Positions 9,469-18,308 are shown, numbered from the stretch's first letter. The stretch: DNA of 64,000 bases from Phycisphaerales bacterium (GCA_003141275.1 PLLM01000061.1:7131-71130); one strand, 5' to 3'. Numbers and translations are program-made. Notes: generated from the sequence alone by a model not told the origin.

Positions 9469-10050
9469 TCATGCAAGGTTCAATCTCGCGAACTCGCCGT
9501 GGTATTTAATAGCGGCCCGGTCATGTGCCTTCGCGGCGTCGATTTCGTTATCAAATTGTCCTAACCATATTCTTTTACCCTGGAACCTGAGATAGGCAGT
9601 CCACTTGCCGGTTTTCTTGCTGAAACATACGCCGATAAATCGCGAAGAGGTTTTCGTCCGCGTCTTTTTTTTGTTGTAGGCGTTCTGAGCGTATGTCGCC
9701 AGGCGGAGGTTGTCCCTGCGATTATCGAGGGCATCTCCATTTTTATGGTCAACTAACAGGCCCGCAGGGGGGGTCATAATTTCCCTGTGCAAATATATGA
9801 TTTTCGAGCCACTCCAGTAATTACCCATAAACCGGATGGCCGTAAAAGATTTGCCGTTCGGTTTTGCGATCCAATAAAAATTATTCAGCCGATAGTAATC
9901 CGCCTCGTCAACAAGCGTGTATTTCCCTTCCGTCAGCACTATCCTGCGATACGTGTACCCGTATTTCCATTTCCGGTACATCACCGCTGGCCACGCGAAA
10001 ACCCTGTCCATCCATTCCGGTATCCCAATTGTTAAATTAACCCTCATCAT
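9469..10050 (-). CDS. HNH endonuclease with C-terminal AP2 DNA-binding domain (homing-endonuclease-like)
   Basis: HNH_3-type motif 'LVDHKNGDALDNRRDNLRLATYAQNAYN' is followed by the AP2/ERF-type 'FIGVCFSKKTGKWTAYLRFQGKRIWLGQFDNEIDAAKAHDRAAIKYHGEFARLN'. Confidence 0.85.
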   Translation of the reverse strand: MMRVNLTIGIPEWMDRVFAWPAVMYRKWKYGYTYRRIVLTEGKYTLVDEADYYRLNNFYWIAKPNGKSFTAIRFMGNYWSGSKIIYLHREIMTPPAGLLVDHKNGDALDNRRDNLRLATYAQNAYNKKKTRTKTSSRFIGVCFSKKTGKWTAYLRFQGKRIWLGQFDNEIDAAKAHDRAAIKYHGEFARLNLA

Positions 10051-10123: not shown

Positions 10124-10156
10124 ACACGGAGCGAAGCGACGGGCCCGCTTCGGAAA
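10124..10156. repeat. 33-nt hairpin repeat, copy 1 (second copy at 18276..18308)
   Basis: 'acacggagcgaagcgacgggcccgcttcggaaa' is identical at both sites. It contains the stem cgaagcg/cgcttcg with a 7-nt loop. Confidence 0.85.
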
Positions 10157-11447: not shown

Positions 11448-11618
11448 AGAACACTTCCTTTCACAAGCGGCACCTGACAACGAGTCCAGGGCAGCCCAAC
11501 ACAATTTATATTTCGACTTAGACACTTATATATAGGCGTAGAAGGGGGATTAAATGTTGATTGAAAAACCTGACAAAAAAGGGTAAAAAAGGGTCTTAAC
11601 CACGGATTAACACGGCTG

Positions 11619-11641
11619 GGAATGTCATAGCTAACGGTAGA
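11619..11641 (+). repeat. Left terminal inverted repeat of the IS
   Basis: 'ggaatgtcatagctaacggtaga'. The exact reverse complement is present at 14581-14603. Confidence 0.9.
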
Positions 11642-11697
11642 AGGAAATAAGGCCTACACTTAATATATTATGGCGTAGTATTTTACAAAGATTTAAC

Positions 11698-11724
11698 TTG
11701 CTTCCAGCCGAAATGGTGTATAAT
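11698..11724 (+). promoter_or_regulatory. Candidate sigma70-type promoter for the Panacea operon
   Basis: TTGCTT (11698-11703), a 15-nt spacer, then a consensus TATAAT (11719-11724) preceded by tg. It lies about 30 nt upstream of ATG 11752, which has a GGAAGGAAAAA leader. Confidence 0.4.
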
Positions 11725-11751
11725 GACCCAAAAGAGAGTTGGAAGGAAAAA

Positions 11752-12189
11752 ATGGCAAAACTAACTGCACAAGATGTAGCTAATTATTTCCTATCTCTTG
11801 TGGAGGAGGATTGCGGAGACGGCATATCTAATCTTAAATTACAAAAGCTCCTGTATTATGCGCAGGGTTTTAATTTGGCGATTACGGGGAAACCTCTTTT
11901 TGATGAACCTATTTTGGCTTGGCAACACGGCCCTGTTGTCCGTATTGTATGGAGACATTATAGTCTCCACGGAGCAAACCCTCTGCCAAGACCAAAAAAA
12001 TTTGACTTGAGCAAGTTTGACGCTCCAACAAAAGAATTACTCGGTGATATTTGGGAAATTTATGGGCAATTTTCTGCTTGGAAACTTAGGAGTTTAACCC
12101 ACGGTGAAAAACCGTGGATTGAAACAGAAAAAAAACAAGCAATTTCGCCTAAGTTAATGACGGCTTACTTCAAAACGCTTTTGAGCTAA
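11752..12189 (+). CDS. Panacea/DUF4065 domain protein (SocA/GepA-like antitoxin type)
   Basis: 'MAKLTAQDVANYFLSL..ISNLKLQKLLYYAQGFNLAITGKPLFDEPILAWQHGPVV..VW' is the characteristic DUF4065/Panacea N-terminal pattern. ATG at 11752 within the longer ORF-track frame. Confidence 0.8.
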   Translation: MAKLTAQDVANYFLSLVEEDCGDGISNLKLQKLLYYAQGFNLAITGKPLFDEPILAWQHGPVVRIVWRHYSLHGANPLPRPKKFDLSKFDAPTKELLGDIWEIYGQFSAWKLRSLTHGEKPWIETEKKQAISPKLMTAYFKTLLS

Positions 12190-12193
12190 TGCT

Positions 12194-12610
12194 ATGGGCG
12201 AAAAGTTTCGAAACAGGGAAACACAACAAAGCAAAAATATTACATATCAAACACACGGCGAATCAACTAATAAACTGCACCCCGCCTTTTGTCTAAGATA
12301 TTTAGAAAACTCAAAATATGGTTTCCCTAAAGGCAACAAAGATAGACAGGTTATTATTATGGGGGACATATATCAAATGTGTCAAAAACCGTGGCAAGAA
12401 ATAGTTATGACGCCAAGAAATAAAGGGGGGAAAGAACTTATAGCCCAAAACGCCATTTTAAGAACACCCCGTATGAGTATTTCTCCTGATGAACGCTATT
12501 TATCTTTTTATATTGGCGGAGACAAAGGAAGAATGGTTGGATGTCGCCGCGACAAAGTGTTTTATGTCTTTTGGTTCGACTTCGATTTTGACCTTTACGA
12601 CCACGGATGA
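12194..12610 (+). CDS. Hypothetical 138-aa protein, candidate toxin partner of the Panacea protein
   Basis: Starts 4 nt after the Panacea stop on the same strand. No family recognised by eye. C-terminal 'GRMVGCRRDKVFYVFWFDFDFDLYDHG'. Confidence 0.5.
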   Translation: MGEKFRNRETQQSKNITYQTHGESTNKLHPAFCLRYLENSKYGFPKGNKDRQVIIMGDIYQMCQKPWQEIVMTPRNKGGKELIAQNAILRTPRMSISPDERYLSFYIGGDKGRMVGCRRDKVFYVFWFDFDFDLYDHG

Positions 12611-12613
12611 CAA

Positions 12614-13609
12614 TTAAACGTTAATATCATCGGGGCTTGCCGGTGGCAATTGCTTTTGTTCCTCTTGTGGCTCTTTCCCTTTTGATTGTTTTTCCTGAGC
12701 TAATTTTTCGCTATATTCGATTAACGGCAAATCTTTCCACGGCGGAAGTGCCCTTTGTATCATTCGCTTAAAATCAGCCCAAGTCGATGCTGCTTTCATT
12801 AAAGCTGTAACGGCAAATATATGCTCTCTAAGTTTAGGATTACCAATATCATCGGTTAACCATTGGAAAAATTTACTTTTTCTTCTTCCTTTTACGTCTT
12901 TGGGGTTTTTCTTTTTTAGCTCGTCAAGGACCCCCGGTGCAAGACGTTCATATACTATATCATTTGTTAATTTGCCGACAAGAATTGGCCGTTTTACGGA
13001 AATAGGATGATACCTCCAGCCCCTCAAACGAAACAAATTTGCGTAAAAATCGTCAGGGAAAGTTTTGGCCCATTTTAGTTTTTCATCCGAAATAAACATC
13101 TCCAGTATTTCTGCAAGGGCTTGCCGAGTGCGGATATATTGATAACCAGTAGCCTCATCAACTAATGCAATAATCCCAACTTTAGCAAAAGACCTTACAA
13201 GAATTTCACATTGAGCTGCAATATGTTTTTGTTGACTGTTCAGAGTGCCTTCTTTTCTTGCTTCTAATACAACTTCGCAAATATCAGCAAGTATTGTTGC
13301 TTCAAAACCAGCCGCTTCGCCCCCAGAAGGTATTTTGAATTTAATGGGATTTGTGGTCCTGTTGTATAAGTCCTTGCTAACATAGGATTTAAGCGCATTT
13401 GTTCCCAAAAATTTAGTAAGTCGGTCCTCCCCCTTTGTGGTAGTTGTTTTGCCAGACCCACCACTACTCATATTTAGCGCAGAATACAGACCGCTTTTGA
13501 CTAATACCCTTTTCCCGTCCTCAAGAACATAGCAAGGAATTTCTACGTTGCCTATTCTTAATGGGCTATCAGGTGAACCATAAACCGCTTTTACTATTTC
13601 ATTTGCCAT
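12614..13609 (-). CDS. P63C domain-containing protein
   Basis: N-terminus 'VYGSPDSPLRIGNVEIPCYVLEDGKRVLVKSGLYSALN' matches my memory of the P63C domain family. Its start codon lies 1 nt after the transposase stop, so the two are translationally coupled. Confidence 0.7.
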   Translation of the reverse strand: MANEIVKAVYGSPDSPLRIGNVEIPCYVLEDGKRVLVKSGLYSALNMSSGGSGKTTTTKGEDRLTKFLGTNALKSYVSKDLYNRTTNPIKFKIPSGGEAAGFEATILADICEVVLEARKEGTLNSQQKHIAAQCEILVRSFAKVGIIALVDEATGYQYIRTRQALAEILEMFISDEKLKWAKTFPDDFYANLFRLRGWRYHPISVKRPILVGKLTNDIVYERLAPGVLDELKKKNPKDVKGRRKSKFFQWLTDDIGNPKLREHIFAVTALMKAASTWADFKRMIQRALPPWKDLPLIEYSEKLAQEKQSKGKEPQEEQKQLPPASPDDINV

Positions 13610-13610
13610 T

Positions 13611-14498
13611 TTATGCCGCTCCTAAACTCCTTTGAATTGTTAAACTGAACACATCCTCTTGTTCTCTGTGGTTATAACGATAACAAAATTCATCTACGTA
13701 TTTAGGCAAGTGTCTCAAGCTGACTTTGTGATACTGCCCTACAATACCTCGTTTAAGCAAAGCCCAAAACGATTCTATTGTGTTGGTATGAATATCGCCC
13801 CGGACATACCATATAGAATGGTCGATTGATTTGTGTGGTAAAATTCTGGACATACCGAGATAACTCCGATATTGGTCTGTCATCAAAATAGTGTTTTGAA
13901 TATCAACCTTTTCCCGGACAAGAGCCGAAAACTTTTTTAAGGTAAGGCGAGATTTTCCAAACACCTTTGCATAAACCTGCCCTTTTCTTTCGACCATACC
14001 GACGACTGGTATTTTGCTTGTTCCCCTGCCACATTTATGTTTTATATGCACATCTTTACCGCTACCCCGTCTGGGCTTGCCCCCGACATACGTTTCATCC
14101 ATTTCAACGATACCGCAAAGCAGATTACGATGCTCTGGCTGATACATAGCATCTCTTACCTGCATACCTATACGCCAAGCGGTGTTCCGATTGACTTTTA
14201 AGTGTCTTGCTAACTGTCGGGCCGAAATACCTTTTTTGGCGTTTAAAATTAAGGACACAGCAAGCAACCATTTTTGAAGGGGTAAACGCGTTCTATGAAA
14301 TATGGTTTTGACGGTAACGCCATAGCTGGTGTTGCAACTGTTGCAATGATAACGATGCTCTTTGGGCAGGGGTGTTTGCTTGCTCGATTTGCAGTAAGGG
14401 CAACGCGGCGTTCCTTGCCACCTGACTTTTTCTAAGTAAGCAATGCAATCGTCCTGTTTCGGAAACCTTGCGAACACTTCAAAAATATCCATTGTCAT
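13611..14498 (-). CDS. IS1595-family (ISXO2-like) DDE transposase
   Basis: N-terminal zinc-ribbon 'CPYCKS..YHCNSCNTSY', an HTH-like 'GISARQLARHLKVNRNTAWR', then the ISXO2-like core 'VEMDETYVGGK..MTDQYRSY..H..GDIHTNTIESFWALLKRGI.GQYHKVS..HLPKYVDEF.YRYN'. Confidence 0.9.
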   Translation of the reverse strand: MTMDIFEVFARFPKQDDCIAYLEKVRWQGTPRCPYCKSSKQTPLPKEHRYHCNSCNTSYGVTVKTIFHRTRLPLQKWLLAVSLILNAKKGISARQLARHLKVNRNTAWRIGMQVRDAMYQPEHRNLLCGIVEMDETYVGGKPRRGSGKDVHIKHKCGRGTSKIPVVGMVERKGQVYAKVFGKSRLTLKKFSALVREKVDIQNTILMTDQYRSYLGMSRILPHKSIDHSIWYVRGDIHTNTIESFWALLKRGIVGQYHKVSLRHLPKYVDEFCYRYNHREQEDVFSLTIQRSLGAA

Positions 14499-14580
14499 AG
14501 CCCTTAAATTCTATCTACCAGTATCTATGTAGAATTATAACCTGTGTTCGGCCAAAGTCAACAAAAATCTAAAATATTTT

Positions 14581-14603
14581 TCTACCGTTAGCTATGACAT
14601 TCC
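14581..14603 (-). repeat. Right terminal inverted repeat of the IS
   Basis: 'tctaccgttagctatgacattcc' is the reverse complement of 11619-11641. Confidence 0.9.
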
Positions 14604-14854
14604 GACACGGCTTTATAACTGCTTGTATATAAAGCACTTATATTGTTTTTTTTAACACGAAGAACACAGAGAAACACGAAGAAAAAAAATACATAAAACC
14701 TTTATCCGGCGTAGGCGGAAAATGGCCGGAGTTAAATTTATCGCGAAGCGCAGGGCAGGAATTCAAATCAAAAAGCAAATGGCAAAAGGCAAAAATGTGG
14801 TATCCCGGAGGGATGATTTTTACCGCGGCGGGAAAAAAACGGTAGCTGTTCCCA

Positions 14855-15820: not shown

Positions 15821-16137
15821 CTCTCAACCCTTGGCTAAGCAAAGCTTACTATCTTTTCTTTACCCCTGGAATAACCGGGGACACCATACTTATTTCCTTA
15901 TTATTTATAAAGCATTTACCGGACGGCAAAGTTGGTAGGCAAAGGTGCGTTTCTCTTTTTGCAGTATATTGTTAAACTGGAAAGAAAACAAGCATTTTTG
16001 TTCGCCACCAAGGCACTAAGGCACTAAGTTTTTCGACTTAAGTAAAAGACAGGACAGTGTTAATCTGTGAAATCTGTGGCTTGATTAAATCGTCAATCGA
16101 CATTCGGCAATCGGCAATTGCTTAATCCGCCTTGCCT

Positions 16138-16196
16138 GCCCCCGCGTCTCGTTTTGCGAAGCCCCGCCTTGCGGGAAGAATCAAAACGGCGGGGGG
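16138..16196. repeat. GC-rich palindromic element, copy A
   Basis: Starts with 'gcccccgcgtctcgttttg' and ends with 'aaaacggcggggg', which can pair. It encloses the small hairpin ccgc-ctt-gcgg. The same ends are found at 17099..17183. Confidence 0.6.
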
Positions 16197-16293
16197 TTGC
16201 AATTATCTTAATGGCAGGATAAAATCATTGGAAACCTGCGCCGTAAGCAGGGTATATGTGGAACAAACGCAGGATTATTCAGGAAGCGGGAAA

Positions 16294-16686
16294 ATGCGGG
16301 TAAACTATAAGATAATTCAAGCCAAAGATTTCATAAAGGCCAAACCCACCGGCCAGATAGACCTTGATGAGAGCAAAAAAATGCTCAGTCAACTTGCGCA
16401 GATGGAGGAATTAATCGGAGATCATGAGCTGCTGTTAGATTTGCGGGAAGTCCACAGCAACATGGATCATGCCGACCTGTTTGAGCTGATTCTTGAACTT
16501 GGGCGGCACAAGGAGGCATTCCGAAGTAAGATCGCCGTCATTGCAAGAGATGATGAGCAATTCAACAAAGCTGTTTTTCTGGAGATGTGCGCGAATATCG
16601 ACAAATTTACCGTTATGGCGTTCACCGATTTTGAAAAGGCAGCAAACTGGCTCCAGTCCGATGAGGGTCTGGAAGACCTGTTATAG
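16294..16686 (+). CDS. Hypothetical 130-aa protein (possibly STAS/SpoIIAA-like fold)
   Basis: ATG at 16294 after GGAAG. The upstream part of the ORF-track frame (16132-16293) runs through the GC-rich repeat and is not credible coding sequence. The fold guess rests only on the alternating beta/alpha pattern 'IDLDESKKMLSQLAQ..ELLLDLREV..ADLFELILEL..KIAVIARDDEQFN..FTDFEKAANWL'. Confidence 0.45.
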   Translation: MRVNYKIIQAKDFIKAKPTGQIDLDESKKMLSQLAQMEELIGDHELLLDLREVHSNMDHADLFELILELGRHKEAFRSKIAVIARDDEQFNKAVFLEMCANIDKFTVMAFTDFEKAANWLQSDEGLEDLL

Positions 16687-17098
16687 GCCTGCTGCCGCAA
16701 TAAAGACGTAATGTAAGCGAAACTAAAAGAGTGTTTACCACAACAGGTAAGATGGAAATTTTGGTTAAAGGAGTGTTCGCCGTTCCCGTGTAATCCGTGT
16801 CGAATCAGTGGTTAAAATTCTTCGTGTTTCTTCGTGCCTTTGTGGTGAAAAGCAGTGTTAATCTGTGTCTAAAAAAAACGCTGTACTCTCTGCGGCTAAA
16901 AATAATCCGTGTTAATCCTTTTTAATTTATGTCAGCCAGTAAATACCTAAGGTATGCCCCTATGCCTTTGGCATCCCTTACGGGAAGGGGCAGCAGACGA
17001 GATAAAGGTCTTGCGCACAAACCACGTTTGGAGCACATACCTTATCGAGTATGCTCATCCGGCTGACTAAACCTGCGGAATCTGCGAAGCCCTGCGTA

Positions 17099-17183
17099 GC
17101 CCCCGCGTCTCGTTTTGTTGGGCCTTGCCCAACCCCCGTGTCCTGCTTTCACCAGAAAGCAACGGGGGCGAAAACGGCGGGGG
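17099..17183. repeat. GC-rich palindromic element, copy B
   Basis: Same 19-nt 5' end ('gcccccgcgtctcgttttg') and same 3' end 'aaaacggcggggg' as copy A. The larger interior holds two hairpins (ttggg/cccaa and cccccgt..acggggg with tgctttc/gaaagca inside). Confidence 0.6.
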
Positions 17184-17322
17184 CGCAATCAGCGTCTAAA
17201 ATAAATCAGTGCAATCCGTGTAATCTGTGGCTAATAAAAAAACAGCGTATAGCGGACAGAAAAGACACAAGACAGCGGGCAGCGTACGAAGAAAAAATTT
17301 ATTTATTTTGCCCGGATTTTGT

Positions 17323-18275: not shown

Positions 18276-18308
18276 ACACGGAGCGAAGCGACGGGCCCGC
18301 TTCGGAAA
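18276..18308. repeat. 33-nt hairpin repeat, copy 2
   Basis: Identical to 10124..10156. It sits between the convergent PEP-CTERM gene and hemL, so it may act as a bidirectional terminator hairpin, although it has no T-tract. Confidence 0.85.

Follow-up and report, generated by a model that had tools for sequence, protein, structure and literature searches.

The 64,000-nucleotide stretch of DNA from a Phycisphaerales bacterium that was analysed here (GCA_003141275.1, PLLM01000061.1:7131-71130; the window, with positions counted from its first letter) contains an insertion sequence (IS) of the IS1595 family with four genes between its terminal inverted repeats. On the minus strand, a transposase gene with zinc ribbon, helix-turn-helix (HTH) and DDE regions (13611-14498 or 13611-14492) is followed by the gene for a P63C-domain protein of 331 amino acids (12614-13609), the ATG of which lies 1 nt past the transposase stop, as had been reported in the original prediction from the sequence alone. 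On the plus strand, the gene for a Panacea/SocA-like antitoxin-domain protein (11752-12189, 145 amino acids from the ATG at 11752; gene callers start at 11713, which gives 158 amino acids) is followed 4 nt past its stop by orf138 (12194-12610), which encodes a candidate toxin partner of 138 amino acids. The earlier calls of the transposase, P63C and Panacea genes all hold. The last had been presented as part of a divergent two-gene operon; it is one of two paired genes, but the pair is better described as convergent with the P63C gene, with the stops 3 nt apart.

The element extends from 11618 to 14604. The 23-mer GGAATGTCATAGCTAACGGTAGA occurs in two exact copies in the window, at 11619-11641 (plus strand) and at 14581-14603 (minus strand), where the predicted inverted repeat had been placed. 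The perfect complementarity is in fact 24 bp long (11619-11642 and 14580-14603). With the outermost base included, the distal, cargo-side repeat GGGAATGTCATAGCTAACGGTAGAA (11618-11642, plus strand) and the transposase-proximal repeat CGGAATGTCATAGCTAACGGTAGAA (14580-14604, as read on the minus strand) pair over 24 of 25 bp. The sole mismatch is the terminal base, with C in the CGGAATG of the transposase-proximal end and G in the GGGAATG of the distal one. This base was counted as part of the element because the ends of related elements read CGGAAT..., and the distal repeat is homologous to their CGGAAT(G/T)TC.. ends. With the termini set in this way, the element is 2,987 bp long, and the 8-mer ACACGGCT, present in exact direct copies at 11610-11617 and 14605-14612, abuts it on both sides. 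The 8-mer had been located correctly, but one base away from each end; the intervening base is the terminus of the element itself.

As a word, ACACGGCT is not rare, with four copies in the window against 1.45 expected. Its position is the significant point, since the chance that it adjoins both ends is about 1.5e-5 for one fixed register. A dispersed repeat family might be suspected behind the 23-bp match, with a coincidental 8-mer and no transposon at all. The recurrence of the 8-mer in the window, and the local enrichment of a motif, TAATCYGTG, that touches the left flank, would fit this idea, but its probability is negligible. The 23-mer remains at two copies in the window even when three mismatches are allowed, where no chance matches are expected, and this excludes a dispersed repeat. 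Moreover, homologous ends are found on transposase-P63C units with 8-bp duplications of their own at 18 other loci. Intact inverted repeats and an 8-bp target-site duplication, as in the IS1595 family, are thus borne out. The feature is a real, structurally intact IS1595-family element that was inserted as a single 2,987-bp unit, together with the genes beyond the transposase.

The transposase is 293 amino acids long from the ATG at 14492, the start preferred by gene callers, or 295 amino acids long from 14498. It matches the ISXO2-like catalytic domain (PF12762, 8.2e-33), the zinc ribbon (PF12760, 8.6e-10) and the IS1595 transposase family NF033547 (191 bits against a cutoff of 75, 215 of 215 profile positions covered), so that both Pfam and NCBIfam support the predicted zinc-ribbon/ISXO2-like DDE enzyme. 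The protein aligns end to end with its homologues (100% coverage). Residues that are invariant or nearly so among 28 homologues are all kept, namely C31, C34, C50, C53, D132, D206, E240, K247 and R248, with the last three in an E240-x6-K247-R248 arrangement; the four cysteines of the zinc ribbon are invariant. A zinc-ribbon domain is a feature of all IS1595 subgroups except IS1016. Between the transposase-proximal inverted repeat and the transposase start lies a sigma-70-like promoter sequence on the minus strand (14534-14561, TTGACT-16 nt-TATAAT, 11 of 12 consensus positions). The total of promoter-like sites across the region is not above chance, and the position of this consensus match is therefore suggestive.

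The P63C protein matches PF10546 over the entire profile (93 of 93 positions, 2.7e-36, 124.5 bits against a gathering cutoff of 26.1), and it belongs to phrog_2384 (3e-107), a group without assigned function; the domain is matched by all 54 aligned homologues as well. The AlphaFold2 model has a mean predicted local distance difference test (pLDDT) score of 80.6, with values mostly above 90 for residues 10-145. Comparison of this model with the PDB gave no similar fold (best E 0.5), and a sequence search of the PDB was also without a match. Among the viral models of BFVD, p63 of the Myxococcus phage Mx8, the protein behind the domain name, is matched at 2e-8. Foldseek similarities to viral BRO, antirepressor and KilA models are weak (E from 3e-3 to 0.8, low template modelling scores), and the Pfam domains Bro-N and KilA-N are not found among the 54 homologues even at E≤1. 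The Bro-type and P63C domains were reportedly defined by Iyer, Koonin and Aravind in 2002. The protein may combine a Bro-N/KilA-N-like N-terminal half with a helical P63C half. Unlike the phage regulators of the P63C/Bro type, the gene is here the second cistron of an IS transposase operon. In two related loci (L061:3591-4954 and L062), an intact P63C gene follows only the N-terminal 133 codons of the transposase, with the zinc-ribbon/HTH region, and the catalytic half has been deleted; P63C can thus outlive its transposase.

The arrangement of the transposase and P63C genes is typical for a large group of elements. Scores were obtained for over 7,700 homologues of the transposase and over 6,400 of P63C. 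A transposase scan with one genome per species gave 31 loci, around which P63C homologues were sought by tblastn. Of the 26 loci with a transposase identity of at least 48%, about 24 have such a homologue (34-54% identity) directly behind the transposase. The P63C-linked loci span at least eight phyla and are found in Pirellulales, delta- and alphaproteobacteria, Nitrospirae, Terriglobia, Halieaceae, Ignavibacteriae, Bacteroidales and Omnitrophota. In addition, four P63C homologues (58-78% identity) were picked independently of the transposase; each of them is preceded by a transposase gene or by what remains of one. Nineteen elements, including the one in the window, could be delimited. All of them have inverted repeats of the CGGAAT(G/T)TC.. 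type (consensus CGGAATtTCCTAG), 17 have an exact 8-bp duplication, and a further one (L022) has it after a boundary shift by 1 nt. Where a P63C gene is present, it is always inside the inverted repeats. The smallest elements, with 1,978 bp (L054), 1,984 bp (L008) and 1,996 bp (L051), consist of the transposase and P63C genes alone. Among 18 elements, the junction between the two genes is an ATGA overlap of 4 nt in about 10, a gap of 0-2 nt in six, and a wider gap in two. A frameshift fusion of the two proteins, as in IS1, was considered and rejected, since the relative frame differs between elements (4-nt overlap; gaps of 0, 1, 2 and 42 nt).

Conservation behind the transposase and presence in the minimal elements argue that P63C is not incidental cargo. 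On this comparative evidence it is a conserved core gene of the IS clade, predicted to be translationally coupled to the transposase. The original prediction had counted it among a three-gene cargo, which amounts to a one-gene IS1595 element that gained three unrelated passengers. In favour of such a history, all three genes lie between the inverted repeats, passenger-bearing IS1595 elements are documented (Siguier 2009, as cited in PMC11891212), and a secondary source credits members of the family with one transposase gene only (PMC8101967). We nevertheless judge it very unlikely. P63C has a fixed place across phyla, mostly with the 4-nt overlap, and is the only extra gene in 2-kb elements, whereas the Panacea pair is missing from 30-31 of the 31 related genomic loci. 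The linkage is also unlikely to be a sampling artefact, in view of the 45-78% divergence of P63C and the breadth of at least eight phyla. From the comparison, only the two genes of the Panacea pair appear to be true passengers.

In elements of more than 2 kb, the stretch that leads from the P63C stop to the distal inverted repeat behaves as a variable slot. The slot contains a type II N6/N4 DNA methyltransferase gene in L015, the same together with a convergent open reading frame (ORF) without assigned function in L006, a methyltransferase fused to an HNH domain in L016 or to an Mrr-type nuclease in L035, a RAMA-domain or PDC-S14-like protein in L007 and L034, an NYN/HEC-09-like protein in L055, and small ORFs without assigned function in several others. 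In L013 (8005-10182) and L017, a cargo gene of 178 amino acids is broken by a nested ISAs1-like insertion of about 2.1 kb, which encodes a DDE_Tnp_1/DDE_Tnp_1_assoc transposase with a DruA-like N-terminal region. The four-gene layout of the window recurs in L056, with 66-70% amino acid identity (70% for the Panacea protein, 68% for orf138), but only 50% for P63C. A decayed relative (L049, JGI contig Ga0187886_1007839, 2082-4388) has one inverted-repeat end that is identical over 21 bp. It retains just the last 49 codons of P63C, and has in its slot a different Panacea gene (193 amino acids, 24% identity) and an ORF of 101 amino acids. About 0.7 kb beyond its inverted repeat, a stretch is 67% identical to the region of the HNH/AP2 gene in the window (9479-9789), and this distant relative may therefore have comparable surroundings. 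Taken together, the slots show the element of the window as one variant of a modular transporter IS. Its Panacea gene and orf138 are located within the inverted repeats, and the target-site duplication encloses the unit in its entirety, as in a transporter IS (tIS), a term that is said to have been defined by Siguier, Gagnevin and Chandler in 2009.

The passenger pair of the window resembles a toxin-antitoxin module in domain content and gene order. The Panacea protein matches PF13274 (2.1e-19, 70.9 bits against a cutoff of 25.7) and belongs to phrog_1281 (2e-47). It scores 63.3 bits against the SocA equivalog NF047745, far below the cutoff of 190 and with residues 7-81 alone matched, and is therefore not a SocA equivalog. 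A bicistronic partner is present with orf138, which belongs to phrog_8366 (7e-20) and is found behind the Panacea gene also in L056 and L057. Its family comprises about 558 representative clusters at E≤1e-3, all of about 135-145 amino acids. Panacea has been described as a hyperpromiscuous antitoxin domain that is paired with many unrelated toxin families (Kurata et al. 2022, PMC8832971). As in the PanAT modules of that study and the SocAB type VI toxin-antitoxin system, a PF13274 protein is encoded 4 nt upstream of a small conserved partner, in a mobile element. In contrast to these systems, the partner orf138 matches no known toxin family. The pair is thus most likely, on present sequence comparisons, a toxin-antitoxin module for addiction or abortive defence that travels with the IS and would stabilize it.

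We consider it probable, with good confidence, that the locus is best explained by an intact transporter IS with a transposase-P63C core and a slot that holds the Panacea-orf138 pair. A promoter just inside the transposase-proximal inverted repeat would drive the two-gene core operon, and P63C would probably be made by termination-reinitiation coupling to the transposase stop. By analogy with the family, the transposase would bind the 24-25-bp CGGAAT... repeats and integrate the unit with 8-bp staggered cuts, which would yield the ACACGGCT duplication. P63C, as a standing component of the clade, would be a DNA-binding accessory protein or regulator that serves the element; we assign this role with low to moderate confidence. 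The Panacea-orf138 pair, mobilized with the IS, would stabilize it at the landing site.

Observations of three kinds weigh against this reading. The first kind concerns P63C. Homologues with 42-50% identity stand alone on small plasmids and prophages, where no IS1595 transposase is present and methyltransferase, restriction, Abi and partition genes are nearby. Modules are shuffled between elements, and the identities to the window are mosaic: L055, the closest transposase, has 85% identity in the transposase and 45% in P63C, and L051, the closest P63C relative, has 68% and 78%, respectively. Such discordance argues against a tightly co-evolving transposition complex and implies that related elements have recombined with one another, either at the gene junction or close to it. 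Furthermore, distant transposases (at most 53% identity) are found without P63C. One of them, L025, has a target-site duplication, and P63C is thus not needed by the IS1595 family as a whole.

These findings could mean that P63C is an ancient, self-sufficient passenger, for example a selfish, regulatory or conflict gene that is anti-repressor-like or associated with restriction-modification (RM). It would have been captured once or exchanged repeatedly, and kept for a benefit to the host or for retention of the element, and the transposase alone would move the unit. The full-length P63C genes without transposase and the mosaic identities are in line with this view, as is the transposition of distant relatives that lack P63C. 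It also agrees with the presence of a same-strand N6/N4 DNA methyltransferase gene directly after P63C in four IS relatives (L015, where the two genes overlap, L006, L016 and L035) and, without a transposase, on the unrelated Methylorubrum plasmid pMPPM01 (L036, 35183-39028). The adjacency may reflect a functional link. A passenger of ISNha5 that is called a "transcription regulator" in PMC11891212 would also be compatible. Nevertheless, we regard an ancient passenger as the less likely alternative, though one to be taken seriously. P63C is retained almost universally, in a fixed position and coupled to the transposase across phyla, it is kept in the smallest elements, and PADLOC has no defence match for it. 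A core gene that serves the element accommodates these facts more readily.

The second kind of observation concerns mobility. Look-ups of the exact transposase and P63C proteins and of the products of both flanking genes gave contigs from at least six assemblies (ENA, JGI, Logan), all with the same filled site. No other insertion site of the element was found in the assemblies that hold its exact proteins, the pattern of the empty-site junction had no matches in JGI metagenomes, and the window contains no second copy of any part of the element. Copies with other 8-bp flanks, which would support the original description of the element as recent and probably still mobile, were thus not found with the exact proteins, the inverted-repeat pattern or the window. 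All that the pattern scan gave was the decayed relative L049, along with a solitary sequence resembling an inverted repeat, GGAATGTCCTAGCTAACGGTA, in two JGI contigs (L048, Ga0114972_10091858; L050, Ga0078894_10060356). No transposase, P63C or Panacea homologue lies within 1.2-1.6 kb on either side of the latter, which may be the cargo-side end of another relative or an orphan end. The plasmid collection contained no relative of the element at the DNA level; the best transposase matches there have at most 42% identity and no P63C neighbour, and the best named plasmid-borne relative is ISPepr2 (38% identity).

The single copy at a single site, without an empty counterpart in the JGI metagenomes, would suit a fixed, immobile relic that is kept for its toxin-antitoxin or P63C genes, and the differing terminal bases of the two ends (G and C) could be read in the same sense. 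We regard this as the less likely reading. The inverted repeats match without a break over 24 bp, the two copies of the 8-mer are identical, both core ORFs are of full length with all invariant residues kept, and relatives with equal or worse inverted-repeat identity are present in multiple copies. Metagenomes of one population, moreover, cannot prove absence of movement. The intact parts of this particular copy, from which its mobility is deduced, fit an element that may be recent or active. Mobility of the group is illustrated by an alphaproteobacterial metagenome-assembled genome (MAG) that contains at least seven copies of a related element with differing duplications. In two loci of this same MAG (CBDCME01; L012 and L017), the 8-bp flanks ACGCAAAA and ACCGAGGT are reciprocally swapped, as would be expected from recombination between copies or from an assembly chimera. 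A related IS in L020 (5864-5891 and 8646-8673) lies within a palindromic flank, AACCCCC..CCCCCCTTT and AAAGGGGGG..GGGGGTT, which indicates insertion into a hairpin-forming, terminator- or REP-like target.

The third kind of observation concerns the toxin assignment. No match to orf138 was found in Pfam, NCBIfam, PADLOC or the PDB, and the protein has no recognizable toxin fold or family. Its AlphaFold2 model, built on four sequences, has a pLDDT of 38 and is unusable. In L057 (JGI 3300037086, corresponding to 11830-13011 of the window), an otherwise nearly identical population variant of the locus, orf138 lacks 30 nt in frame; residues 62-71 are lost, and 128 amino acids are left (P0241). The variant may be a toxin-attenuating allele.

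Among the characterized groups, the element is closest in its features to the ISNha5 subgroup, which has CGGnnTT ends, a DDE(R/K) signature, a length of 3.4-7.9 kb and passenger genes. The features would fit membership in this subgroup. Shared with it are the zinc ribbon and ISXO2-like DDE transposase, the 8-bp duplication, CGGnnT(T/G) ends, the DDE...K/R signature, and the presence, within the inverted repeats, of further genes downstream of the transposase. In contrast to it, the element has only 2,987 bp, and its minimal relatives have about 2.0 kb; the ends read CGGAATG here instead of CGGnnTT, and CGGAATT in many relatives. The homologues are annotated by PGAP and JGI as "IS1595 family transposase" only.

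A second ORF that is conserved in a clade, co-transcribed with the transposase gene, often overlapping it and located inside the ends has analogues in IstB of IS21, TnpB/orf2 of IS66 and TnpB of IS200/IS605. P63C has no relation in sequence or fold to the AAA+ protein IstB, to the IS66 accessory proteins or to TnpB. Carriage of passengers by IS1595 elements has been known since Siguier et al. 2009, and the IS1595 family is described as having a single transposase gene in the secondary source mentioned above. The "transcription regulator" of ISNha5 could well be a P63C/Bro-like gene. The P63C domain itself is barely discussed, and the term "P63C" returns mostly crystallography and p63 papers. 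The literature search gave no paper that joins IS1595 with P63C or Bro-type proteins, and none in which the second gene is called P63C or regarded as a conserved core gene with translational coupling. Passenger-carrying IS1595 elements are hence already known, and the conserved transposase-P63C operon was not found in the searched literature.

The surroundings of the insertion contain repeats of their own. The element had been placed inside a copy of the local intergenic repeat gtgttaatc[ct]gtgg. The motif is weakly repeated, with three copies at up to one mismatch and six copies of the core TAATCYGTG in the window against 0.85 expected. Five of these six are clustered in intergenic DNA at 16.06-17.23 kb (16061-17229), where related AATC[CT]GTG repeats are also found, and the sixth is at 11601-11609. 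The left duplication overlaps the repeat copy at 11600-11613 by just 4 nt, so that the proposed insertion into the repeat is marginal. On a larger scale, a direct repeat of 33 bp without mismatches, ACACGGAGCGAAGCGACGGGCCCGCTTCGGAAA, which is sharply delimited and contains a hairpin, is present in only two copies, at 10124-10156 and at 18276-18308. One of them is found immediately 3' of an aminotransferase gene, the second a short way upstream of an HNH/AP2 gene. Together they enclose 8.15 kb with hypothetical genes, the IS and a stretch of low GC content (33-43%, approximately 10.25-16 kb). The pair resembles ends of the att type around an integrated islet, in which no integrase was seen, or like hairpins of the REP type.

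Taken by itself, the locus is an ordinary, well-preserved passenger-carrying IS, the annotation of which in the window is confident. The wider pattern is that a huge and mostly environmental IS1595 clade, with thousands of members, nearly all from uncultivated bacteria, keeps a second, coupled gene for P63C, and that its elements exchange methyltransferase or RM, nuclease-domain and toxin-antitoxin genes downstream of it. A tentative extension, which goes beyond what we consider likely at present, is that P63C is a required accessory or regulatory factor of this very large clade, involved in the binding of ends or targets, control of the transposase or sensing of the cell state. The clade would then be a shuttle with a slot for conflict systems (RM or methyltransferase, NYN, RAMA, Panacea toxin-antitoxin), and orf138 a new family of Panacea-neutralized toxins. 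Should P63C have a part in transposition, it would represent a novel type of accessory protein for ISs, and the P63C domain would gain a function. Should it have none, the elements still illustrate the spread of defence and addiction modules between phyla by small ISs. With about 560 representative clusters, the family of orf138 offers a candidate, open to testing, for a new toxin that is neutralized by Panacea. The part that merits follow-up is the clade-wide transposase-P63C operon with its slot for conflict genes.

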